Source: an uncultured Verrucomicrobiae bacterium (GTDB taxonomy: Bacteria > Verrucomicrobiota > Verrucomicrobiia > Chthoniobacterales > UBA10450). Taken from it: a stretch of 64,000 bases of DNA. The DNA is taken from contig CAVYXA010000001.1 of NCBI GenBank assembly GCA_963772365.1, positions 960,001 through 1,024,000 on the forward strand. Direction: 5' to 3'. Position numbers and translations under genes: made by a program. The notes beneath the pieces are model-generated. The model was not told where the DNA came from, ran no database searches, and was given only the letters and a program-made list of their open reading frames with translations. Positions 511 through 13,347 of the stretch are shown one piece after another (position 1 is the first letter of the stretch; each line of letters starts with the position of its first letter).

Positions 511-2502
511 TCACCGCAACGCCTCCACCGGGTCGGGCGGATGAACCAGCTCGGGCGGCGGCGGATTCGATTTCAGATAATCATCCACCGCGTCTTTCGT
601 TGCCTGGTCGATGTTTTTGCTGGCATCTCTTTCGGTAGCGTGCGCCTCATCGGCAGCTTTCTCGGCTTTGTAGAGATCAGTCATCGCCTGCTTGCCGTCA
701 TCGGTCTTATTGAAGTCCTGTTTGAAATTGTTTTCCAGTTTCTTCAACTCGTTGTCGAGTTTGTTGAACGCGTCCTTGTCCGCGTCGGTCGCGCCGGCAG
801 CCTTGGCCTTTTTCTCAGCGTCATCGCGCTGTGTTTTCAAGTCGTTGTAGCTCTTCTTCCCGCTCAGGAAATCCTGAAACTTTTTGTTGTAATCGTCGTT
901 GGCGTCGGCCTTCGCGTCATCGGCCCAGCCGGCCTTGAATTTTTTCTGCAGCCAATCAGCAAACGGATATTCCTTAACGAACTCGTCCCACCAATCGAAT
1001 CGATAAACGTAACCCTTTTTCTTTTTGTCTTTCTTGTCTTTTTTTTTCTTCTTCTCCTGCGTTTGCGGCCCAGGCGTCGGCGTATCGTTTGAAATGTTGA
1101 CGCTGTTCCCCGCGATCATTTCCTCTTCTTCCGGCTCCTCCAGTTCCTTGGCTTTGGAGCTGGTCAACTCCACTTTTTCGAAAATCGTGTCGATCCCCTG
1201 ATCGACCTTCTTTTTGGTTGCCCGGCTCATTGGCCCCTGTTTTTCAACCTGTTTATAAACAACCTGTTTGAGCTCATCTTTTGTGGCCGGTTTTGCGCCG
1301 GTGATGCCGCAAATCTCCGGGTCGCCCCACACGCTCCACTGGATCACGATGTCTTTTTGCTTTTGCTTGTCGCGATAAGGCATGTCCTTCAGCTTGCCTT
1401 CTTTCTGCAATTCATCGGCGGCATCGTATTTCGAACTGGCCAGGGTCAGCATCGTGTTCGCGTCCTGGGCCGGCAGATGCGAGCCGGGCATCTGCAGTTG
1501 CGGATTGCCTTCGTTGATAACCAAATCGCCGGTGACTCCATTGCCCACCGGCGGTTTGCTTCGGTCGAGACATACGCCTTCAATTGGCACCGTGAAGCTT
1601 TGTTTCGGGCCGAGCACCATTGGTTGCTCGCTTGGGCAGGCGTAATGCTGATTTTTTCCGCTGCTCGACTCCAGAACCATCGGCGGAATCATAAAACTCA
1701 CCGGCTGCGCAGTTTGATTTTGGATCAGGCAATTAGCTACGGGACCGATGGTTTGCCCAGTGCCGGCAATCTCGACCGCCAGTTTGTTCCGCAGAATGAG
1801 AGAGGAGATCGTATTCCCAGGCTCTCCGTCTGATGGTGTCGAGGTCGCGCTTGGAAAAGCCTGCAGTTTTGATCCCCATTTGGTTTGCAAATCGTCCAAC
1901 GTGGGGCCGAGCTTTGGGTACCTCGTTGGGTCGGCGCCTAAAGAATGGTCCGTCCACTCCACTTTTTTGGGATCCCAAACGTGATTTTTCCAGTTATCTC
2001 TCTTGCCGTCTTCCCACCCGTCGTAGCCGTAGATTATTCCGCCCAAGATATCTTTCCCGTTCGGGCCGTAGCTTTCGACACGCTGATGAAGCAGGGCGCC
2101 ATCTTCCGTCGAATAGGTAGCTTCAGTCTTTGAGCTGAGCGTTCCGTTCTTTCGGTAAGTATAGGTGCTGACGGTCGTCCGCTTCGTGTTGGGATTGCGT
2201 TCGACGAACACAACCCTCGCGGGTCTTTCGCCTTTCTTCGTGAATCGGACCCACTCGACTTTTGTGATGTTGCCGTCCTTGTCTCGAGTCGTGCGTTTCT
2301 CACCGTCGCCGTTAAACGGGCCCTCGAAAATTTTGTAGAAGGAAACTTTCTCGGTCGTGATTGTGCCGCCATCCGGATTTTTTTTGACGATTGGAGCGTC
2401 GGCATGAATTGGCGGCGCAACGCAAAACCAAACCAGAACTGCAAAGGCTGGCACGGCCTTGCACGACATCCGCAGTCGAAAGCGATTTCTCAGGTGGCGC
2501 AT
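511..2502 (-). CDS. Secreted multidomain protein: beta-hairpin-rich N-terminus, Cys/QWSVW module shared with neighbour, K/D-rich helical C-terminus
   Basis: 663-aa ORF with hydrophobic signal-like N-terminus (..PPIHA-DAP). Central ~220 aa are paralogous to the C-terminal half of 2537..4036. Confidence 0.75.
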   Translation of the reverse strand: MRHLRNRFRLRMSCKAVPAFAVLVWFCVAPPIHADAPIVKKNPDGGTITTEKVSFYKIFEGPFNGDGEKRTTRDKDGNITKVEWVRFTKKGERPARVVFVERNPNTKRTTVSTYTYRKNGTLSSKTEATYSTEDGALLHQRVESYGPNGKDILGGIIYGYDGWEDGKRDNWKNHVWDPKKVEWTDHSLGADPTRYPKLGPTLDDLQTKWGSKLQAFPSATSTPSDGEPGNTISSLILRNKLAVEIAGTGQTIGPVANCLIQNQTAQPVSFMIPPMVLESSSGKNQHYACPSEQPMVLGPKQSFTVPIEGVCLDRSKPPVGNGVTGDLVINEGNPQLQMPGSHLPAQDANTMLTLASSKYDAADELQKEGKLKDMPYRDKQKQKDIVIQWSVWGDPEICGITGAKPATKDELKQVVYKQVEKQGPMSRATKKKVDQGIDTIFEKVELTSSKAKELEEPEEEEMIAGNSVNISNDTPTPGPQTQEKKKKKDKKDKKKKGYVYRFDWWDEFVKEYPFADWLQKKFKAGWADDAKADANDDYNKKFQDFLSGKKSYNDLKTQRDDAEKKAKAAGATDADKDAFNKLDNELKKLENNFKQDFNKTDDGKQAMTDLYKAEKAADEAHATERDASKNIDQATKDAVDDYLKSNPPPPELVHPPDPVEALR

Positions 2503-2536
2503 CTGTTGTTTTACTTTTTAGGAGAATGAAACGGTC

Positions 2537-4036
2537 TCACGGCGACGGAGTCGGGCTGGGACTTTCTTCCGGCGGCGATTGTTCGGCTTTGGCTTTCTCG
2601 CCGGTCAACTCGACGCTGGCAAACGGATCGGGTTTTTCCAATTCTTTCGCTTTTGCCGAAGTGAGCTCGATCTTGTCCCAAATCGTATCGATTCCATTGT
2701 CGATCTTCTTTTTCGTCTGCGACTTCATCTTGCCCTTTTCTTCCTTCTGCCGATAAACCACCTGCTTCAGATCATCCTTTTTTGCTGGAGGATCACCGGT
2801 GATTTCGGAAATTTTTGGATCGCTCCAAACGCTCCATTGCACCGCAATTTCGATCTGTTTCTTTTTATTGGGATACGGGAAACCCTTGAACTCGCGATCC
2901 TTCACCAGCGTTTCGGCCGCTCGATATTTCGAGTCGGTAATCTGAAGCAAATCTCTGGCTTGTTTCGGCGAGAAGCGGGCTTCCGGATATTTCGGGATAG
3001 TACTGTCACCCGTATTGATAAAAAGCTCTCCGGCAACATGGTCGCCGGCGGGTGGCTTCCCTCGTTCCAAGCAGACGCCCGTCACTGGTATACTCAGGGT
3101 TTCCTGTGGCCCTAACGAAACCTCCTGCTGCCTGGGAGAGGCATAATCCTGCGTTTTACCATTTGCCGACTCAAGGATGAATGGGGGCACGAGAAACTTC
3201 AGCGGCTCATTGGTCAGATTTTGGAAATTAAAATCTGCGATGTGTTCTATTGTGTCGCCTGTGCCCGTGATCTCAGTTTTGATCTTTTCCGGGCGCCCGC
3301 CAGTGCCCGAAAGAACATCGACCGGCCGGCTGGTAATAAAAAGGATCAGGTTCTGCTTTGGCTTGTTGCGCGGAGAAAACAATCCACTCAACACCGGAAT
3401 CTGACCAAGCGCTGGAACAGTGCTCGTCTCGTTGCCTTCAACTGTTTTCAATGGCTGCGGAAACACCGAGCCGTTCTCGGACCGAATTTTGGGATCGATC
3501 TTGATGAGGATGTCGCCGTTCGGCGCGAGAGTTGGTGTGGTTGTCAGGATCAAATTGCCTTGTGGAAATACAACCGAAGGATCGAGGTAAAAATTCGTCT
3601 CCTGCTCGCTCGGAGCCAGTATCGCAGGTTGCTCGAAAATCTTGGCGCCTTTTTCGCGATCCAGAACATGCAGAATCGCCTTGAATTGCTGATCGGTGAT
3701 GAGTCCGGACAGGTTGATGCTACCGGGAATCTGATCCGGCGGGAAGAGTCGTTGCCTAACTGTTTCAGCCGACGGAGAGGGTCCAAGACCCAAGATGCCG
3801 TCTTCCGGCGACGGCAATTTCGCCGCATCGGCTGGCAACTTCGACAGAACATCGGCAATGCGATTGTCGATGCCTAATTCGCGAGACAGGGTTCGGCTTA
3901 CCTCGGCGACCTTTACTTCAATTAAAACTTGGCGGGTCAAAACTTCCGCCCGAACCAATCCACCAGCCGAAATGGCGCAGAGACCCGCAGTCAGGAATGC
4001 CCAACTTCTCCGCTTCGAACCAATCAATCCAGCCAT
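2537..4036 (-). CDS. Shortened secretin (GspD/CpaC-like) domain fused to a C-terminal Cys/QWSVW module
   Basis: Signal peptide; secretin signatures QVLIEVKVAEVSRTLSRELGID, LTTTPTLAPNGDILIKIDPKI and VPALGQIPVLSGLF...NLILFIT. Confidence 0.75.
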   Translation of the reverse strand: MAGLIGSKRRSWAFLTAGLCAISAGGLVRAEVLTRQVLIEVKVAEVSRTLSRELGIDNRIADVLSKLPADAAKLPSPEDGILGLGPSPSAETVRQRLFPPDQIPGSINLSGLITDQQFKAILHVLDREKGAKIFEQPAILAPSEQETNFYLDPSVVFPQGNLILTTTPTLAPNGDILIKIDPKIRSENGSVFPQPLKTVEGNETSTVPALGQIPVLSGLFSPRNKPKQNLILFITSRPVDVLSGTGGRPEKIKTEITGTGDTIEHIADFNFQNLTNEPLKFLVPPFILESANGKTQDYASPRQQEVSLGPQETLSIPVTGVCLERGKPPAGDHVAGELFINTGDSTIPKYPEARFSPKQARDLLQITDSKYRAAETLVKDREFKGFPYPNKKKQIEIAVQWSVWSDPKISEITGDPPAKKDDLKQVVYRQKEEKGKMKSQTKKKIDNGIDTIWDKIELTSAKAKELEKPDPFASVELTGEKAKAEQSPPEESPSPTPSP

Positions 4037-4053
4037 CGCAAGACTTAAGGGAA

Positions 4054-4491
4054 TTACGGGTTCGACGCCGCTTTAGCCGGTTTTTCCTCTTTCGCATCGC
4101 TTCCAGTCAAGCGTACGTCACTGAACAGGCTGGTCGTTGAAATCTCTTCCTTCGGTTTCGAAAATTTCGCCTTCTCCTGCGTGTGCGCAACCGGCTCGTC
4201 ATTGGCGACGGCAAACGGATCGGCCTCACGTTTGCGGTGGCCGATACCGCCAAGATCGACATTCACGCCTACCCCTACGCTGGTGTGACCCTCATGATGT
4301 TCCCCTCGCTTTCCACTGTGATGCGATTCATTTCTTTCGCCCTTTTCGCCCTTGAAGCTCTTGCCGCCTCCACCGCCGCCGCACGTGCAGGGCGAACATC
4401 TACAGGGATTGCAAGGACAGGCTGAGGCCGTGATGACAGTGGAAATTGAGACCAGCCCGATCAGTGCGAAGAAAAGAATGGGAGTTTTCAT
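4054..4491 (-). CDS. Small secreted Cys/Gly/His-rich protein
   Basis: Signal peptide, then CPCNPCRCSPCTC, a Gly run and a His-rich stretch; 4-nt overlap with the upstream gene. Confidence 0.7.
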   Translation of the reverse strand: MKTPILFFALIGLVSISTVITASACPCNPCRCSPCTCGGGGGGKSFKGEKGERNESHHSGKRGEHHEGHTSVGVGVNVDLGGIGHRKREADPFAVANDEPVAHTQEKAKFSKPKEEISTTSLFSDVRLTGSDAKEEKPAKAASNP

Positions 4492-5018
4492 TTTGCAATA
4501 GAAGTAAGTCGGAGAACGAACACCTGACCGCTCGGAAGCGTGATCTGAAGGCGCTTATCGGATGTGAAAATCTCCTTCGGCCAATCGGCCTTGGTATACG
4601 CGTAATTTCCATGCGGGCCGAAAATCTTGTTCAAATTGATGCCCACGCCCGATGCATGCACTCCGGACGAATCGCCGTAGCCACCTACCGAAATCGGCAG
4701 GCCGGTGTTTTCTTCGTGCCCAACTTTTCGATCTTCGCGAAACACTGGTTTGATTGCGGCGCCGGTCGCATCGATTAAAGCAATCGCCCGCGGCTTGATT
4801 AGCTTCAGGTTTGCGTCCGAGACGCGAATGATCAGACGCGTATTTTGCGGTTTAGCCTGATGCAGCGTGTCGCCAATCGTCTCAATGGTGTAAGCGCCGC
4901 TTTTTGTCGTCTGATGCATAGGCGTGAGCGGGCCGCTCTTCCGCGGTCCCGCTTCGACCTGAAAGTCGACGACCAGACCAAGAAGCGGCAGTGCAATGGC
5001 AATGATTACTTTTTTCAT
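4488..5018 (-). CDS. Secreted hypothetical protein
   Basis: MKKVIIAIALPLLGL... signal peptide with GGAG RBS upstream (ORF could extend to 5051); first gene of the operon. Confidence 0.7.
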   Translation of the reverse strand: MKKVIIAIALPLLGLVVDFQVEAGPRKSGPLTPMHQTTKSGAYTIETIGDTLHQAKPQNTRLIIRVSDANLKLIKPRAIALIDATGAAIKPVFREDRKVGHEENTGLPISVGGYGDSSGVHASGVGINLNKIFGPHGNYAYTKADWPKEIFTSDKRLQITLPSGQVFVLRLTSIAK

Positions 5019-5169
5019 AAACATTTCTCCTGAACCAGCCATGTTGGTCAACGCACTGATCCCAGTCGCCCCTGTTGGATAGGTGGCAGGTCGTGAAACT
5101 CAGGTTAGCGAAAGCCTCGCTAACTTGTAAAGCCCGAAAAACTTAAGCGCTCTTTCCTCGCTTGCTGCG

Positions 5170-5856
5170 ATGTCATGGATAATGGAGCCCAAAGCGGATG
5201 CACCATTTGAGCCGCGCAGTGATGAGCTGGACGATCTCCTGATTTTTGGCGGCCCGGAAACGCGCCGGCAGTTTATCAAGCAAGTCGCGGGAACCGGTGT
5301 GGCGATCACGATCGGGCCGGCTTTATTGAACGCCGCAACTCTAATGGTCGACGAAACTTCTGTTGCATCAGGCCCGGGATCGAGCACCGATTCCATTAAG
5401 GTGAAGCTGAACATCAACGGTAAAGAACACCAGGTCGATGTCGATCCTAGGACGACATTGCTCGACACCCTGCGCGAACGACTGCAACTGACGGGCTCGA
5501 AAAAGGGATGCGATCACGGACAGTGCGGCGCCTGCACGGTGTTGATTAACGGCCGACGAGTGAATTCGTGTCTGACATTCGCGGTGATGCACGAAGGCGA
5601 CGAGATCACCACGATCGAAGGTCTGGCCAATGGTAACGACCTGCATCCGATGCAGGCGGCATTTGTCAAGCACGACGGATTTCAGTGCGGTTACTGCACC
5701 CCCGGCCAGATTTGTTCGGCCGTTGCCTGCGTGAAAGAAGGGCACGCGAACAGCGACGAGGAAATTCGCGAATGGATGAGCGGCAACATCTGCCGGTGCG
5801 GCGCGTACACAAACATTCTGGCCGCGATTAAAGAAGCGAAGTCAAAAATCATCTGA
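5170..5856 (+). CDS. paoA: Aldehyde/xanthine oxidoreductase 2Fe-2S subunit (PaoA/YagT-like)
   Basis: Tat-like TRRQFIK; GCDHGQCGACTVL, QCGYCTPG and NICRCGAY motifs. Confidence 0.9.
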   Translation: MSWIMEPKADAPFEPRSDELDDLLIFGGPETRRQFIKQVAGTGVAITIGPALLNAATLMVDETSVASGPGSSTDSIKVKLNINGKEHQVDVDPRTTLLDTLRERLQLTGSKKGCDHGQCGACTVLINGRRVNSCLTFAVMHEGDEITTIEGLANGNDLHPMQAAFVKHDGFQCGYCTPGQICSAVACVKEGHANSDEEIREWMSGNICRCGAYTNILAAIKEAKSKII

Positions 5857-5896
5857 CAGAATGATCAACAGCAAGCGATCGAGAAGCCATGTCCAC

Positions 5897-6006
5897 AAAG
5901 CGACACGAGGACGCGCCGCACTCCTAAAGCTTCGCGAAAGGAATGGAAGACGTGTGGTGTTTCGGGCGAAGCCCTTTCGGAGTGCGATGCGTCCTCGCAT
6001 CGCTTT
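5897..6006. repeat. Palindromic REP/MITE-like element, intergenic copy
   Basis: AAAGCGACACGAGGACGCGCCGCACTCC...GGAGTGCGATGCGTCCTCGCATCGCTTT; a similar copy lies at 10616-10729 inside mocA. Confidence 0.8.
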
Positions 6007-6021
6007 TGCATCCTTGCTCGC

Positions 6022-7020
6022 ATGAATCCGTTTACTTATTCGCGCGTTGTCGATTCTAACGAGGCAATCAGCGGGATCGGTTCGAAACCACACGCTAAAT
6101 TCATCGGCGGCGGCTCCAATCTGATCGACTTGATGAAAATGGGTGTGGAGACACCCGATGCGTTAATCGACATCAACCATCTGCCTCTGGCGAAAATCGA
6201 GGAGCTTCCCAACGGAAAAGGCGTGCGCATTGGCGCGATGGTCCGCAATTCCGATTTGGCCGAGAATTCATTGATCAAATCTCGCTACCCGGTTCTAAGC
6301 GAAGCCATCCTCGCCGGGGCCAGCCCACAACTGCGCAATGTCGCCACCACTGGCGGCAATCTTTTGCAGCGCACACGCTGCTATTATTTTTACGACCCGG
6401 CATTTCCGGCCTGCAATAAACGCAATCCCGGGAGCGGTTGCGGCGCGATCGACGGTTACAACCGCATCCATGCGATTCTGGGCCAGAGCGACAAGTGCAT
6501 CGCCACGCATCCGAGCGACATGTGCGTGGCCCTGGCCGCGCTCGATGCTGTCGTGCGCGTTCGCGGCCCGAAAGGTGAACGCGAAATTCCATTCGCCGAT
6601 TTTCATCGGTTACCCGGCGACACGCCCGAACGCGAAACGAATCTCGGGCCGGACGAGTTGATCGTGGCTGTCGATCTTCCCCCGATTCCGTTCACCACCC
6701 GTTCGCACTATTTGAAGGTGCGCGACCGGGCCAGCTATGCGTTTGCGCTGGTGAGCGTGGCTGCCGCGCTCGATGTCGAGCCCAACAAAGAAATCAAAGC
6801 AGCGCGGCTCGCTCTCGGCGGGGTGGCTCATAAACCATGGCGGGCGCATACAGCGGAAGAAAAGTTGATAGGCGCAAAAGCCGACGAGAAAACATTTCGC
6901 GCAGCCGCGGAAGCTGAACTCGCCGCCGCCAAGGGGTACAAATACAATTCGTTCAAGATCGAACTGGCGAAGAATGCGATCATCCGCGTGCTCAGCACGG
7001 TCGCCGCAATGACAACATGA
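6022..7020 (+). CDS. paoB: Aldehyde/xanthine oxidoreductase FAD-binding subunit (PaoB/YagS-like)
   Basis: [33 protein letters not shown] and [16 protein letters not shown] motifs. Confidence 0.92.
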
Positions 7021-9207
7021 GCGCACCCAAACCAATCACAGCGAAATCGATGAGCACGCCGATGAGCCGTGTCGATGGCCCGTTGAAGGTCACGGGCGCA
7101 GCCAGGTATCCCGCGGAGTTTAATCCACCAGATGTCGCGCATGCATTTGTTGTGATGAGCCCGATATCAAAGGGGGAGATCACGGCGATTGATTCGGCTG
7201 CGGCAGAAAAGGCGCCTGAGGTTCTCGCAGTTCTCACTCCTTTCAACGCGCCAAAATTATCCGAGCCGCCGAATGCGCAAAAACGGGAAGGAATCCGGAT
7301 CGAGAAACGCGAGCCGTTGGCGGACAAGAAGATTTATTATGGTGGTCAAGTACGTTGCTGCGGTCATCGCAGAAACGCTCGAAGCTGCACGATATGCGGC
7401 ATCGCTGCTGAAAATATCCTACAAAAGCGAGTCGCCATTGCTAAATAGAGAAACAGCAATCAAGAAAACGGAGCCGAAGGAACACTTCGGCGACGAGCTG
7501 CGACAGAAAAAGGGCGACGTCGCGGCCGTGTTTGAGAAAGACGATCTGGTCAAGATCGAGAACACCTATTCGAGCCCGACCGAGACCCATAATCCGATGG
7601 AATGCTCGGCGACCGTGGCGCATTGGGAAGAGGCCGATCGGCTGACGATCTATGATGCGACGCAATTTGTGAAAGGCTCGCAAGGAATCGTTGCTCACGC
7701 ATTTGGGATTCCGCGAGAAAATGTGCACGTGATCTGTCCATTCGTCGGCGGAGCGTTTGGCTGCAAAGGACCAACCTGGCCACACACGATTCTCGCGGCA
7801 ATGGCAGCGAAAGTTGTGAAACGTCCCGTAAAACTCGAGCTGACGCGACAGCAGATGTTCAGTGGAACCGGCCATCGGCCGCCGACTTATCAGACCATCG
7901 CGCTGGCGGCGGATCACGACGGAAAGCTTCAGGCGATCCGTCACAAAAGCGAAATGCTCACATCACCGGTCGGCGACTGGGTCGAAGCGTGCGGGATTGG
8001 TTCGACGAATGTTCTTTACGATGCGCCCGCTATCGAGTTCAGTCACACCGTTTACACCGTCAATGTTGCTCAGCCGTCGTTTATGCGCGCGCCGGGTGAA
8101 TGTCCGGGCACTTATGCGTTGGAATGCGCCATGGATGAATTGGCTTATGCGCTCAAGATGGATCCGCTGAAATTGCGGCAGGTTAACAATTCGCCCGGTC
8201 ATCCGATCAAAGGCATTCCATGGTCCACGAAACATCTGGCGGAAGCTTATCAATTGGGCGCTGAGAAATTTGGTTGGTCGAAACGCAAACACGAGCCGCG
8301 CTCCATGCTCGCCACGGCGAGTCCGTCCGGTGGCGGAAAAGATCGACATTTGCTCGTAGGCTGGGGCGTAGCCACTGCGACTTATCCCGCGCACGCCGGT
8401 CGCTCTGAAGTGAGAATTCAATTTCGCGCCGACGGAACAGCATTGGTGAAATGCGCCGCCCATGATCTTGGAACGGGTCAATGGACGTCACTTACTCAAA
8501 TCAGCGCCGACGCTATTGGATTACCGGTCGAAAAAGTGAAGTTCGAGCTTGGCGATTCCGATTATCCGTTCGGGCCGGTCGCGGGCGGATCGCAAACCAC
8601 GGCGACCGTCGGATCCGGAATTGCCCTCGCGGCGCAGGATTTGAAAAAGAAACTTGTCGATCTTGGCGCCAGTGAAAACAAACCGGCAACATTCGCCGAC
8701 GCGTTGAAGCGGAAGGGAACCGACTCAGTGGAAGGTTACGGCAAATATGAATTCGAGGAGAGCGACAAATTCGGATTCCAAAGTTTCGGCGCACAATTCT
8801 GCGAGGTGAAAATCGATCCCGATTTGCCGCTGGTCCACGTGACGCGCTGGGTGAGCGTGATGGACTGCGGGCGCGTCGTGAATTTGAAGACCGGCGCGAG
8901 TCAGATTCTCGGCGGCGTAGTGATGGGCATTGGAATGGCACTGGAAGAAGAAACCGTTTACGATCCGGCCACTGGACTGCCGGTGAACCGGAATCTCGCC
9001 GAATATCATGTGCCGGTGCACGCTGATATTGAAAACATCGATGTGCATTTTGTCGGAGAGCCCGATTACAAGTTCAATCCGGTCGGCGCGCGCGGCATGG
9101 GCGAGATCGGAATCACCGGCGCCGCGGCAGCCGTGGCGAATGCCGTTTATCACGCAACTGGAAAGCGCGTGCGCGACCTGCCGATCACGCTGGATAAATT
9201 GCTGTGA
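7017..9207 (+). CDS. paoC: Aldehyde/xanthine oxidoreductase molybdopterin-binding subunit (PaoC/YagR-like), frameshift near 7350
   Basis: [14 protein letters not shown] start in one frame; [18 protein letters not shown] and GARGMGEIG in the next; one indel joins them. Confidence 0.88.
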
Positions 9208-10223
9208 AAGAAATCTACGACATCCTGCGCGAGGTAGGGCGCGACCGCCGGGCGCGCCGTGGTTTTGCCCTCGCGACGCTGGTTCGCGCGGAAGGATCGA
9301 GCTTTCGCCGACCCGGCGCGCGAATGTTAATTTGCCAGGATGGAAAAACAGTCGGCTCGCTCAGTGCCGGCTGCCTGGAGGACGAAATTGCATCGCGAGC
9401 TCGCGAAGTCTTGAAAACGGGAAAACCGTCGATGATGAGTTTCGACACACGGCGACGATTCGGCTGCAGCGGCAGGATCGACATCTTCATTGAGCGCGCA
9501 TTGGAAAAGTTTTTTGTCGATCTTGCCAGGAATCTAGACTCGCGCAGGAGTTGTCTTGCGATTACTGCGCGCGAAGGAACATCTGTAGGGGAAGCTGACA
9601 GCTTCCCCGGTTTCACCGCGAACCATTTTTGTGGTGGGGAAGCTGTCAGCTTCCCCTACAGCCAGAACCGTGACGTGTTGCTCGTTCAGCAGATTCATCC
9701 ATCCATTCGGCTTTTGATTGTTGGCGATGGACCGGACAATGCGCCGATTTGTAAATTGGCGAGCCTCATTGGCTGGGAGACGGTTGAATTTGTCGATCCG
9801 GGCGAAATCGTGATCGAGCCGGACGAATGGACCGCGGCGATTGTGAAATCGCACAATTACGGACGCGATTTTGTGGCGCTGCAAAAATTGCTGCCGATGA
9901 ATCTGCGGTATGTCGGCCTGATCGGGCCGCGGAAACGACGGGATCAATTGCTTAATGCTCTCCTCGATGAAGATGTCACGATCAATGCCGGATTTTTCGC
10001 ACCGGCGGGGCTCGATCTTCACTCGGAAACCCCGGAGGAGATTGCTCTTGCCGTTGTCTCGGAAATTCAGCGCGTGTTTGCTGGTGGCTCCGCCTTGTCG
10101 TTGCGGGAACGGAAGATGTCGATCCACGCGTCGTTTCACAGTTCCTCGACGGATTCCGTGGCGCCATCGAAAGGAAATGTCGCGGGATCCTTCGACCCCG
10201 AAAGCGTTCGGGGCTCAGGATGA
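9204..10223 (+). CDS. xdhC: XdhC/PaoD molybdenum-cofactor insertion chaperone
   Basis: ATLVRAEGSSFRRPGARML, GSLSAGCLE and APAGLDLHSETPEEIALAVVSEI motifs. Confidence 0.88.
   Translation: MKEIYDILREVGRDRRARRGFALATLVRAEGSSFRRPGARMLICQDGKTVGSLSAGCLEDEIASRAREVLKTGKPSMMSFDTRRRFGCSGRIDIFIERALEKFFVDLARNLDSRRSCLAITAREGTSVGEADSFPGFTANHFCGGEAVSFPYSQNRDVLLVQQIHPSIRLLIVGDGPDNAPICKLASLIGWETVEFVDPGEIVIEPDEWTAAIVKSHNYGRDFVALQKLLPMNLRYVGLIGPRKRRDQLLNALLDEDVTINAGFFAPAGLDLHSETPEEIALAVVSEIQRVFAGGSALSLRERKMSIHASFHSSSTDSVAPSKGNVAGSFDPESVRGSG
9583..9661. repeat. Palindromic element with perfect 26-bp terminal inverted repeats, in frame inside xdhC
   Basis: CTGTAGGGGAAGCTGACAGCTTCCCC ... GGGGAAGCTGTCAGCTTCCCCTACAG; a half copy occurs at 34316-34335. 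Confidence 0.9.
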
Positions 10224-11074
10224 CAGGCGCGGTAATTCTGGCGGCGGGCCAATCGTCGCGATTTGGGCAGCCCAAGCAACTCGCGAGATTTTGCGGAGAG
10301 AGTCTCCTGCGCCGAACTGTCGATGCTGCGAATGCCGCCGGTTGTTCGCCGATTATCGTCGTGGCCGGCTCTGATAGCGAAGAGTTGGTTCCCGAATTGC
10401 GCGATCTCGATGTTGTAATCGTTGAAAATCCGGGGTGGCGGCGCGGGATTGGAACTTCAATCCGAGCTGGTTTGAAGGTGTTCATCAAGGACAGGCGTTT
10501 TGTTAAGCGCCCTGCGGCGATTGGAAAACCGCCGTTCATTGGAGGAATCATCGGCGATCGAAAGCGCTTGTCGCAGCGCGCAAGTAGTGCCGACGACTGT
10601 GCTCCGTCATCGGGCAAAGCAACGCGAGAACGCGCGCGCACTCCGAAAGCTGACGCGAAATGGAATTTGGCGTCTGGAAAGATTTCGCACGAAGTGCTTT
10701 CGAAGTGCGAAGCGTCCTCGCATCGCTTTCAGCGAATTGCTCGCGACGCCCATAAAGGCGTAATTTTAATGGTGTGCGACCAGCCGTTTGTGGATGCGGG
10801 TGTAATCAAGAAGCTCATCGCGCTGCGGGAGCAAACCGGGAAAGCAATCGTCGCGTCTCGCTATGCGGATACTCTCGGCGTGCCGGCGCTTTTCGATCGT
10901 TCCTGTTTTGAAGAACTCCTTGCACTGGACGACGCCGATGGTGCAAAGCCAATTATTCTGCGCGATCGATCACGAGTGGCCACGCTGCCATTTCCGAACG
11001 GCGAGATCGACATCGATACTGCAAAAGATTTGGAAAAGCTCGCATTGGTGGAACGCGATCTCCGAGCGCGTTAG
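10220..11074 (+). CDS. mocA: Molybdenum cofactor cytidylyltransferase (MocA-like) with a large internal insertion
   Basis: AVILAAGQSSRFGQPKQL, NPGWRRGIGTSI, CDQPFV, GVPALF and DIDT motifs; about 90 extra residues precede CDQP. Confidence 0.85.
   Translation: MTGAVILAAGQSSRFGQPKQLARFCGESLLRRTVDAANAAGCSPIIVVAGSDSEELVPELRDLDVVIVENPGWRRGIGTSIRAGLKVFIKDRRFVKRPAAIGKPPFIGGIIGDRKRLSQRASSADDCAPSSGKATRERARTPKADAKWNLASGKISHEVLSKCEASSHRFQRIARDAHKGVILMVCDQPFVDAGVIKKLIALREQTGKAIVASRYADTLGVPALFDRSCFEELLALDDADGAKPIILRDRSRVATLPFPNGEIDIDTAKDLEKLALVERDLRAR
10616..10729. repeat. Palindromic element (same family as 5897-6006), in frame inside mocA
   Basis: AAAGCAACGCGAGAACGCGCGCGCACTCC...GAAGTGCGAAGCGTCCTCGCATCGCTTT. 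Confidence 0.8.
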
Positions 11075-11179: not shown

Positions 11180-13347
11180 TCATTTCCCGCCGCCAAAGAA
11201 TCGCCGGAGTGTTTGAAGAATTCGATTGGGAAACTGGGTCGCTTTGCGCCCCGTATCCTCCAGTTTTCCAGCGAACATTTCCTCGCCGCCATGAACTTCG
11301 CACGGCATGGTGGGAATTTTATCCACTGGGAGATCGATTTCGTAGGCGGTGCCGGCAGCCTGACAACCAGTGGTGGCGAGGTGATTCGAGATCGAGCAAA
11401 CCATTGCCCGCTGAATCGGCATGGTGGGCTGCAAATCCTGCGGCGGATAGCGTTGCGCCGCCTTGTTCATTACCTGAACCCAAATTGGCAGAGCCAGGGC
11501 AGAACCATAACCGTGCGGGATGATCGCGACCGGCTGATCGAAGCCGACCCAGACGCCGCACGTGATCGTGCTGGTGAAACCGACAAACCAGGCATCCTTG
11601 TAATCGTTCGTCGTGCCGGTCTTGCCTGCGGCGGCAATTTGAAGCCTAACGATCGAGCGGAAGCGGCTGTCCCTTCGGTGAGCACGTCTTCCATGATCTG
11701 CGATGTCATCCAGGCGGCGCTGGAGTCAAGCGCAGGGGCGGAAATGTGAGCTGCGCGATAAATGGGATTATGATTCTGATCGTCGATCCGTTCGATAATG
11801 TAGGCTTGCTTGCGGACTCCGGCGTTCGGGAACACGGAATACGCTGCGGTGAGGTCACGCAGATCTGTTTCGAACGAACCGATGTAGATGGCCGGCCCGT
11901 GCGGAACATTCTGGCTGAGATTGAGCGTATTAGCGACCTTCTGGACAGAATCGAGTCCAGCGAATTGGCCGACACGTACACTCATCGTATTGCGCGAGTG
12001 GATCAGACCATAAGAGCACGGCTCGATCCCGCCGAAGGTGCCATCCGAATTTGCAGGCGACCAGTTTCCCGCACCCCGAATTTCACCGGGCTGAATCGGT
12101 CCATCGCTGATCGCGGCGCCCGGCAAAAGTCCTTCGGTAAAAGCAACGGTATAAACAAACGGCTTGAAAGCAGATCCGATCTGCCGGTTTGCCGGCGCGA
12201 GTGCGCGATTGAATTTGCTTTGCGAATAATCGCGGCCGCCGACCAGCGCGCGAATGCCGCCACTGGCGTTATCGATCGCCACTAATGCACCTTCGAGATA
12301 AGGCATTGCGCCTTCGTCCCCGTTTTCGGGCGGCTGGTAGTTGGCCTTAATCGGATGATGAAAATTCGACTGGTGCTCGATTTTCGTCAGCTGAGTTTCC
12401 AGCGCGGCTTGAGCAGCGTTTTGCACGGCTGGATCGAGAGTCGTGTAAATGAAGAGACCGCCATTATCGATCTGATCCTGGGTCAGGAGAAGATTCAGAT
12501 CGCGCTGAACGGCGTCCATCGCATAATTCTCCTGGATTTGCAGCATCCGTTTGGGATGCGTGTTCACTCGCGAGCGGCGGGCCTGCGCAGCTTGCGCAGC
12601 CGAAATCTTTTTCAACTCGACCATGCGCTTCAGAACCGCGTCTCGTTGGGCAGCCGCGCCCTCGGGATTTTTTAAAGGCGAAAATCGGTTTGGGCTCCGA
12701 ATCAATCCGGCCAGGAGCGCTGCTTCCGAGAGAGTCAGATCCGAAGCGTGCTTGCCAAAGTATGCTTGGGAAGCGGTCTCCACACCGTAGCAACCGGCAC
12801 CGAAATAGATGCGGTTAATGTAGAGCTCGAGAATTTGTTGTTTGGTGAACTCGCGCTCGATCCGCAGAGCGACCATCGCCTCCAGTAACTTCCGGTTCAA
12901 AGTGCGCCCCCCGAGCGGGAGACTGTTCCGGGCGAGCTGCTGCGTGATGCTGCTTGCGCCTTCCTTGGCGGAACCGCTGAGGATATCGCGAATCAAAGCA
13001 CGCAAAATTCCGCGATAATCGATTCCGTCATGCTGATAGAAACGCGTGTCCTCGCGAGCGAGCAGAGCATCGATAAAATAAGGCGAGACTTCGCTCAGTG
13101 AAACCTTGAGCCGGTTCGCTCCGGCCAGACGACTGTAGATTTTTCCATCGACATCGAACACCGTATTACGCTCCGGCATTTGGCCGACCTTTTTCATGTC
13201 GAAGGTCTCTGCCCATACGCCGTAAAAAACGATTACGCCAAGCCCGCCAGCGACGACCAGACCGAGCAGGGTCAGCTTCCAGCCGAAACGGAGAAAACCT
13301 TTGCCTGTTCTCTTCTTCCTTTTTCGGAAGCGGGCGAAGAGTTTCAT
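11180..13347 (-). CDS. Class A penicillin-binding protein (PBP1A family), frameshift near 11630
   Basis: EDTRFYQHDG and GASSITQQLARN (transglycosylase); GSAFKPF and SRN motifs. KTGTT appears after the shift, and that frame runs to the stop at 11180. Confidence 0.88.

Follow-up and report, generated by a model that had tools for sequence, protein, structure and literature searches.

What do four tightly packed genes for putatively secreted proteins do together, when the only curated family match among them (Pfam, NCBIfam) is a fragment of a secretin? The question is raised by four open reading frames lying in the same direction on the minus strand at positions 511-5018 of the window, that is, the whole 64,000-nucleotide stretch of DNA analyzed here, from an uncultured Verrucomicrobiae bacterium (contig CAVYXA010000001.1). 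The initial annotation of this locus had described packed, co-oriented genes with signal peptides and a module of about 220 amino acids duplicated in the products of two of them, P0002 and P0001. This arrangement is indeed present, with signal peptides that were assigned by eye and are called putative below. Our tentative answer is that the locus encodes a likely secreted tag-and-catcher that ligates itself: a thioester between a Gln and a Cys of the module would be attacked by the Lys of a short peptide, the tag, to give a Gln-Lys isopeptide. The features on which this answer draws are the following.

4488-5018, minus strand: P0004 (176 amino acids), putative signal peptide and predicted Ig-like beta-sandwich.
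4054-4491, minus strand: P0003 (145 amino acids), putative signal peptide, Cys-rich and Gly-rich stretch, GVGVxVDLGG, linker, free lysine tag.
4090-4125, minus strand: free tag in P0003, residues 123-134, FSDVRLTGSDAK; Lys134 at 4090-4092.
2537-4036, minus strand: P0002 (499 amino acids), putative signal peptide, trimmed secretin core, module, second (free) tag, Pro-rich end.
3302-3946, minus strand: secretin-derived domain of P0002, residues 31-245.
2618-3292, minus strand: module copy 1, P0002 residues 249-473.
3149-3151, 3071-3073 and 2825-2839, minus strand: Gln296, Cys322 and QWSVW (residues 400-404) of module copy 1.
2645-2680, minus strand: own tag of module copy 1, residues 453-464, with Lys464.
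2588-2623, minus strand: free tag after the module in P0002, residues 472-483, FASVELTGEKAK.
511-2502, minus strand: P0001 (663 amino acids), putative signal peptide, variable beta-rich N domain, module, Lys-rich linker, helical C-tail.
1120-1791, minus strand: module copy 2, in P0001.
1648-1650 and 1570-1572, minus strand: Gln285 and Cys311 of module copy 2, which also has QWSVW at residues 388-392 and Cys289 at module position 52.
1147-1182, minus strand: own tag of module copy 2, residues 441-452, with Lys452.

The two copies of the module (P0002 251-470 and P0001 240-458) share 50% identity over 220 amino acids (E 1e-69), all the motifs quoted in the initial annotation were found in them, and there is no third copy in the 3.35-Mb genome. 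Conservation was counted, in module numbering, over 215 near-full-length non-identical modules, which are related sequences, so that the counts are not independent trials: Gln48 and Trp156 are present in 215/215, Cys74 in 214/215 and Gln152 in 209/215. The Lys of the module's own tag, Lys216, is found in 201/215, with nine gaps. Across 26 diverse aligned rows, no positions other than Q48, C74, Q152 and W156 are invariant. The AF2 model of the module (pLDDT 95.7) has its strands within residues 4-93, followed by five helices that reach residue 218, and is helical after residue 109; Gln48 is on a beta hairpin, 26 residues before Cys74, which stands at the end of strand 65-74. A coevolution analysis, shallow at an effective number of sequences (Meff) of 111 for 217 columns, couples the tag with the surroundings of the Cys (75-208, z 6.8; 155-211, z 5.5; 52-205, z 4.4), and tag residues 208 and 211 are placed against 75 and 155, beside the Cys and the helix that carries QxxxW. 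A first run with the beta lobe alone was too noisy to fix the strand register. The predicted fold has two lobes, like that of thioester domains (TED), and the helix of the tag is predicted to lie close to the Cys.

The last helix of the module ends in [FW]xx[IV]xLTxxxAK, and this stretch is seen again, as a free tag, in proteins that accompany the module. Written as [FWY]xx[IV]xLTxxxAK, it has four occurrences in the six frames of the genome, none of them outside the locus: the two modules each end in one, P0002 has another right behind its module, and P0003 has the fourth. A double tag such as that of P0002 was detected with the strict pattern in 8 of 189 module proteins. Tags were then surveyed in 95 loci (9 duplicate loci dropped) with a looser pattern from which Lys was kept out. 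It gave 90 matches that are modules' own tags, with Lys in 89, and 90 others. Among the latter, the free tags with LTG or MTG ([FWY]xx[IV]x[LM]TG) have Lys, and never Arg, at the last position in 60/60 cases (47 distinct contexts); the 30 non-module matches lacking the Gly, mostly chance with a few true tags, were set aside. For comparison, Lys occupies this position in 1 of 11 matches to the tag pattern elsewhere in the genome, and the other tag positions are Lys in 0-26%. The Leu, Thr and Gly codons of the tag include all synonyms and the Lys codons both, and this synonymous diversity points to selection on the peptide. In addition, in two distant groups of loci without homologues of P0004 or P0003, the product of an unrelated gene upstream of the module has the tag at its end (L059, L060, L061 and L063 in one, L064 in the other). 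The profile of P0004 detected no homology in the upstream tag-bearing proteins of L059-L063. Two further distant loci, L062 and L058, are cut, and L078 shows no upstream tag. Gly-rich hydrophobic inserts occur in the distant tag-bearing partners.

At L064 (3589-8216, plus strand) the tag-ending gene is preceded by one for a TPR protein with a beta-barrel-like C-terminus ending in Phe, and is followed by two module genes. Pfam shows only TPR in this protein, which we take to be Slam-like; it could possibly be a dedicated export route in its lineage.

How far does the module resemble a TED? The papers cited here present TEDs as adhesins of Gram-positive bacteria whose reaction partners are proteins of the host (PMC4450167, PMC6194298, PMC13685950); TEDs are treated as Gram-positive (PMC13685950, PMC8092201) and form isopeptides with a target Lys (PMC4450167). 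Their bond-forming Gln is on the C-terminal strand beta-Q, and the Gln of the helical TQxxPhiW motif only hydrogen-bonds the Cys backbone (PMC4450167, PMC6194298). When the module was compared with 48,161 chains using a wide structural aligner, TED chains were the only rows of the top 50 that spanned the beta lobe through the last helix, although their Z values are below the aligner's typical noise level of 7-8: 5a0g (Z 6.0, root-mean-square deviation (rmsd) 3.6, 127 aligned residues), 6fwv (Z 5.5, rmsd 3.9, 117), 2xi9 (Z 5.4, rmsd 4.1, 132) and 6fwy (Z 5.1, rmsd 4.1, 127). The remaining rows aligned at most 92 residues. The TED alignments end before Gln267 of CpTIE (chain range 101-254). QxxxW is found on helix 143-156 in 209/215 modules, with 9/215 having the strict form with Thr. 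Cys74 is followed by a hydrophobic and a polar residue in 159/215; [YFL] precedes it in only 3/215, and the tandem Bacteroidota-type homologues have GYC or GFC at the module Cys. Gln48 is followed by a polar and two hydrophobic residues in 183/215, as in the motif of the bond-forming Gln of TEDs. No match to PF08341 was obtained for 17 module copies (E up to 10) or 53 homologues (E up to 0.01), nor was this family detected in 101 phylum genomes, where the controls were silent too; a profile search of PDB sequences with the module gave no real match. The C-terminal Gln strand of TEDs is absent, the module model being helical to its end, and 29 of 137 database module proteins, one of them a fragment, end at most 12 residues past the module. 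The module therefore fails as a canonical TED. What survives of the thioester-like module first proposed is a weak resemblance of the fold, and not the canonical Gln strand, with the invariant Gln located before the Cys. The Gln of QWSVW was considered as the thioester partner and rejected because it corresponds to the helical TQxxPhiW motif, which is non-bonding in real TEDs.

The partners of the module were traced in a family sample of 151 Chthoniobacterales genomes. The module is present in nine, in one to four copies each; P0004 is present in eight, all module-positive, and P0003 in the same eight, and all three are absent from the other 142. A phylum sample of 401 genomes returned only the source genome itself, and the named relatives are Chthoniobacterales and Ca. 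Udaeobacter. Close-type modules are present in 69 of the 77 metagenome loci, and P0004 or P0003 accompanies them in 42 of these 69, many of the remaining loci being short contigs; in 31 of 31 metagenome loci with both, P0003 comes directly after P0004. The expected co-conservation of the four genes thus holds for P0004, the most conserved partner of the module proteins, and P0003, found with the module in 8/9 genomes, but not for the secretin domain, found in only 3/9. P0004 starts at an ATG with AGGAG upstream (5051 is a TTG further upstream) and has no Pfam or NCBIfam match. Its AF2 model (pLDDT 82.6), in which a Gly-rich hairpin (…GVGINL…) has low confidence, is most similar to DUF4426 (3uc2, Z 8.8) and CrdA (Z 8.4). 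P0003 has no module and has a library match below threshold, of low complexity; its GVGxxL strand is akin to the Gly-rich hairpin of P0004 (alignment A7). We infer that both proteins are membrane-associated, and P0004 is a candidate membrane-associated anchor or chaperone. P0003 was also considered as a lipoprotein, which was rejected since there is no canonical lipobox by eye and its homologues lack a Cys at +1.

A profile search with the module collected 503 representatives at E up to 0.001, and the details of homologues given here come from the best 150 of these 503 matches. One distant module protein is labelled Saprospiraceae by its source. The flanks of the module are exchanged extensively: 114 N-terminal extensions form 38 clusters and 85 C-tails form 35, the helical C-tail of P0001 belonging to the commonest one. 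The module retains 46-56% identity while the flanks diverge widely, and the same tails are found after the tag in module proteins and in P0003-type proteins.

In the proposed mechanism, the module would form an internal thioester between Gln48 and Cys74, and the tag Lys would attack it, leaving a Gln-Lys isopeptide crosslink. In trans, the module's own terminal helix would give way to a free tag, carried by P0003 or standing behind another module, and that tag would be joined covalently. P0004 and P0003 may hold the complex at the envelope by means of their Gly-rich hairpins, and the product would be a covalent chain or cluster with interchangeable N- and C-terminal payloads, among them the secretin remnant. 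A prediction of the complex between module residues 1-202 (own tag removed) and P0003 106-137 scored 0.02 and 0.01 against a mark of 0.32, which speaks neither for nor against this mechanism. Somewhat more doubtful is a wider proposal: a sortase-free, self-encoded ligation in Gram-negative-type bacteria, in which a permuted TED would act as a built-in transglutaminase on a 12-residue Lys tag and build a covalent surface polymer, made of interchangeable payload proteins, on a tag-bearing anchor, TED and ARPP would be one permuted Cys-Gln clan, and a recycled secretin core would perhaps multimerise the module.

Several observations weigh against the ligation mechanism, in addition to the relatedness of the modules, the shallow coevolution alignment and the aligner's noise level given above. 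Position 52 is Cys in 143/215 modules, which makes a Cys52-Cys74 disulfide possible. The tag Lys is Arg in 5 modules, four modules have Glu and one has Leu at Gln152 (alignment A2), and no catalytic base is evident in the module. A weak coevolution pair, 51-75, could set residue 52, and not 48, opposite Cys74. Foldseek searches of the module against the PDB and viral models, with the top 1000 also inspected, found nothing significant. Finally, one of the nine module-bearing genomes (G024) has two modules without P0004, P0003 or a match to the tag DNA pattern; this pattern occurs at chance level genome-wide, so its absence there means little.

Four other explanations were considered. The first, which we regard as rather unlikely, is a permuted covalent adhesin whose thioester hits an outside target, the tag docking non-covalently by helix exchange with its Lys in a salt bridge. 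The fold and the Cys and Gln evidence apply to it equally, known TEDs react with foreign targets, and 5 of 206 ungapped modules tolerate Arg in place of the tag Lys. However, there is no Arg in the 60 free tags, and a conserved module between variable flanks is easier to reconcile with one constant partner from the system itself than with a range of foreign targets.

The second explanation, an improbable one, is an ARPP-like Cys/Gln enzyme or autoprocessing domain, the tag marking a place of recognition or cleavage at which variable C-terminal cargo is set free, as happens at the junctions of polymorphic effectors. The description of ARPP-1 reports an invariant Cys and Gln, and its authors propose covalent crosslinks via the Cys, to sugars (PMC9503650). 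An atlas of features matched the module to an ARPP-1 cluster (0.87); ARPP-1 has the Gln and then the Cys as the module does, with a spacing of 22-26 residues across both, and a profile match brings Asn, Gln and Cys into register. Identical tails follow the tag in module and P0003-type proteins, and some members have metallopeptidase or eCIS-core domains. On the other hand, the profile match is weak (E 0.01-0.035, probability 1.5-4%) and one of 60 shuffles scored higher, the module alignment has no conserved His or Asp for a protease triad, the 29 of 137 proteins that end just past the tag would have no cargo, and no immunity-like genes were seen in the loci read. In the ARPP-1 proteins at L032-L035, L054, L056 and L057, a QxxxW helix motif was observed after the invariant Gln and Cys; ARPP may itself be a permuted thioester-like domain.

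According to the third explanation, to which we give little credit, the conserved residues are structural, forming an internal Gln-Lys crosslink or the Cys52-Cys74 disulfide, and the free tags are duplicated remnants serving as recombination junctions in domain shuffling. The frequent Cys52 and the exchange of tails at the tag would be accounted for in this way. Against it, Cys74 is invariant also in the rows that have no Cys at position 52 (97 of 248, P0002 among them), the tag codons are synonymously diverse, and in distant lineages the tag forms the very C-terminus of unrelated partners.

The last explanation concerns P0002, for which the initial annotation had proposed a mini-secretin that may form a ring. 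Homology to secretins and the lack of N domains were borne out. PF00263 matches P0002 with 30.2 bits (cut-off 27.5) and NCBIfam secretins remain far under their cut-offs; a family profile of the secretin part matched 23 solved secretin sequences, best PilQ (E 2.8e-15). Rather than scattered motifs, this part comprises the whole PilQ core with internal deletions, starting right after the putative signal peptide: a stretch of 253 PilQ residues is matched by 197 positions of the profile, about 10-16 and about 37 residues being deleted, and the domain is about 55 residues shorter than the PilQ core. The deleted segments are presumably the gate and membrane hairpins. Most members are closest to the genome's own Amuc_1098-type secretin, only some retain the amphipathic-loop motif, and three intact secretins exist elsewhere in the genome. 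Fusions of the secretin part to the module occur in three of the nine genomes that have modules, in a single one of the 77 metagenome loci and, among 161 dereplicated modules, in 16; the 16 fusions are all in one 28-leaf clade (support 0.875), with at least seven changes of state. It is also the largest single N-terminal cluster (20/114), with invariant residues kept. From these sequences it is read as a recycled passenger, one of many swappable payloads. That it is an outer-membrane ring that exports or displays thioester modules is thus very improbable: it does cover the whole core, keep the invariant residues and form the largest cluster, but it is missing from the fetched loci of six of the nine module-bearing genomes (three cut by contig ends), it is swapped in and out within one clade, intact secretins are available elsewhere, and the loss of the gate and membrane-hairpin segments makes an export ring unlikely. 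The idea of an undescribed secreted system stands; that of a secretin-like export ring is not supported, and a system built on the secretin part as its core was rejected.

Further observations were made on the family and the surroundings of the locus. Seven distant homologues (P0176, P0177, P0179, P0182, P0183, P0185 and P0187, one named Saprospiraceae) have a tandem pair of modules in which the tag Lys is missing from the first and kept in the second, and P0179 also has an eCIS-core domain. P0047, P0048, P0130 and P0175 have peptidase domains as payloads, of the reprolysin-like metallopeptidase kind or weak C39-like ones. G022 has four module genes in tandem, one of which is a near-duplicate of its neighbour and is split by a frameshift (L018, 7859-9357, plus strand), and an OmpA-domain gene lies immediately upstream of the module genes in G071 (L021, 6480-7421, plus strand). 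The absence of an adjacent pilin gene is true of the source genome but not of several relatives, in which the locus is immediately followed by opposite-strand genes of the prepilin type (L022, L024, L025, L041, L042). Prepilin-type, DUF2851-like and serS genes form the opposite-strand flanks in relatives (L022, 9844-11225; L024, 9514-10119; L025, 6034-6615; L019, 5967-6599) and are probably the host site of the locus.

At positions 3-443 of the window (plus strand), the frame of an L,D-transpeptidase (YkuD) gene is interrupted by a TGA within the catalytic region (369-371) and is open again beyond it, the TGA being a sequencing error or a nonsense change. A link to this gene was considered and rejected because an L,D-transpeptidase gene adjoins the locus in only 3 of 10 fetched regions. 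A xanthine-dehydrogenase-type molybdoenzyme cluster with XdhC and MobA-like genes (5170-11074, plus strand) lies between the locus and a PBP1A gene (11180-13347, minus strand); it is not so placed in G022 and G054, and G085 has a cluster like it close to the locus (L023). The molybdoenzyme large subunit is frameshifted near 7340 and the PBP1A gene near 11600. Three disrupted genes thus lie within 14 kb, which points to errors in the assembly.

Searches of the open-access literature brought up no account of the family, nor one of a permuted Gram-negative TED. The thioester passage of 10.64898/2026.10.19.760177 refers to the complement fold, and the passages of PMC12617251 on isopeptide domains show nothing like the pair of module and tag. 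Our verdict is that the locus is a candidate variant of thioester-domain chemistry with a lysine tag, not noticed before. If ligation were demonstrated, this would be a covalent surface assembly without sortase, and the system as a whole would be categorically new. It would occur in abundant, poorly studied soil bacteria, with distant forms at least in Bacteroidota, would offer a natural Gln-Lys tag and catcher pair for protein engineering, and would suggest a chemistry for the uncharacterised ARPP-1 family.

It remains to place the locus among known systems. With secretins (PilQ, GspD and Amuc_1098 family; PF00263) it shares the homology of P0002 31-245 to the core domain, which here has no N domains, has shortened segments (presumably gate and membrane hairpins), is fused to a module and is dispensable. 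ARPP-1/DUF6569 (PF20208) has the same order of residues as the module, Asn, Gln, Cys and QxxxW; unlike the module, it has a duplicated beta-meander around a barrel, is located in ADP-ribose conflict loci and shows neither a tag nor a GTGETIG loop, and PF20208 has no match in this genome. TEDs (CpTIE 5A0G, Cpa 2XI9, BaTIE 6FWV and EfmTIE86 6FWY; PF08341; classes I and II) share with the module, as predicted, a beta lobe and a helical bundle, an invariant Cys at a strand end, QxxxW on a central helix, a conserved beta-hairpin Gln and occurrence in secreted multidomain proteins. In contrast to TEDs, the module lacks the C-terminal beta-P and beta-Q strands, has its invariant Gln before the Cys, adds a terminal helix with a Lys tag and sits mid-protein between variable domains, in proteins without an LPxTG anchor, in Gram-negative-type hosts, and with free tags on partners. 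In sortase pili, the Lys of the pilin motif WxxxVxVYPK resolves a thioester to an isopeptide (10.1101/2023.02.23.529612). The analogy lies in a conserved motif Lys that resolves a thioester and in motif-only subunits that end or anchor the chain; the locus differs in having no sortase, no LPxTG cleavage and no homology, and its thioester would be within the subunit. By these analogies the mechanism would be TED-like in its chemistry and sortase-pilus-like in its logic, and a member of neither system.

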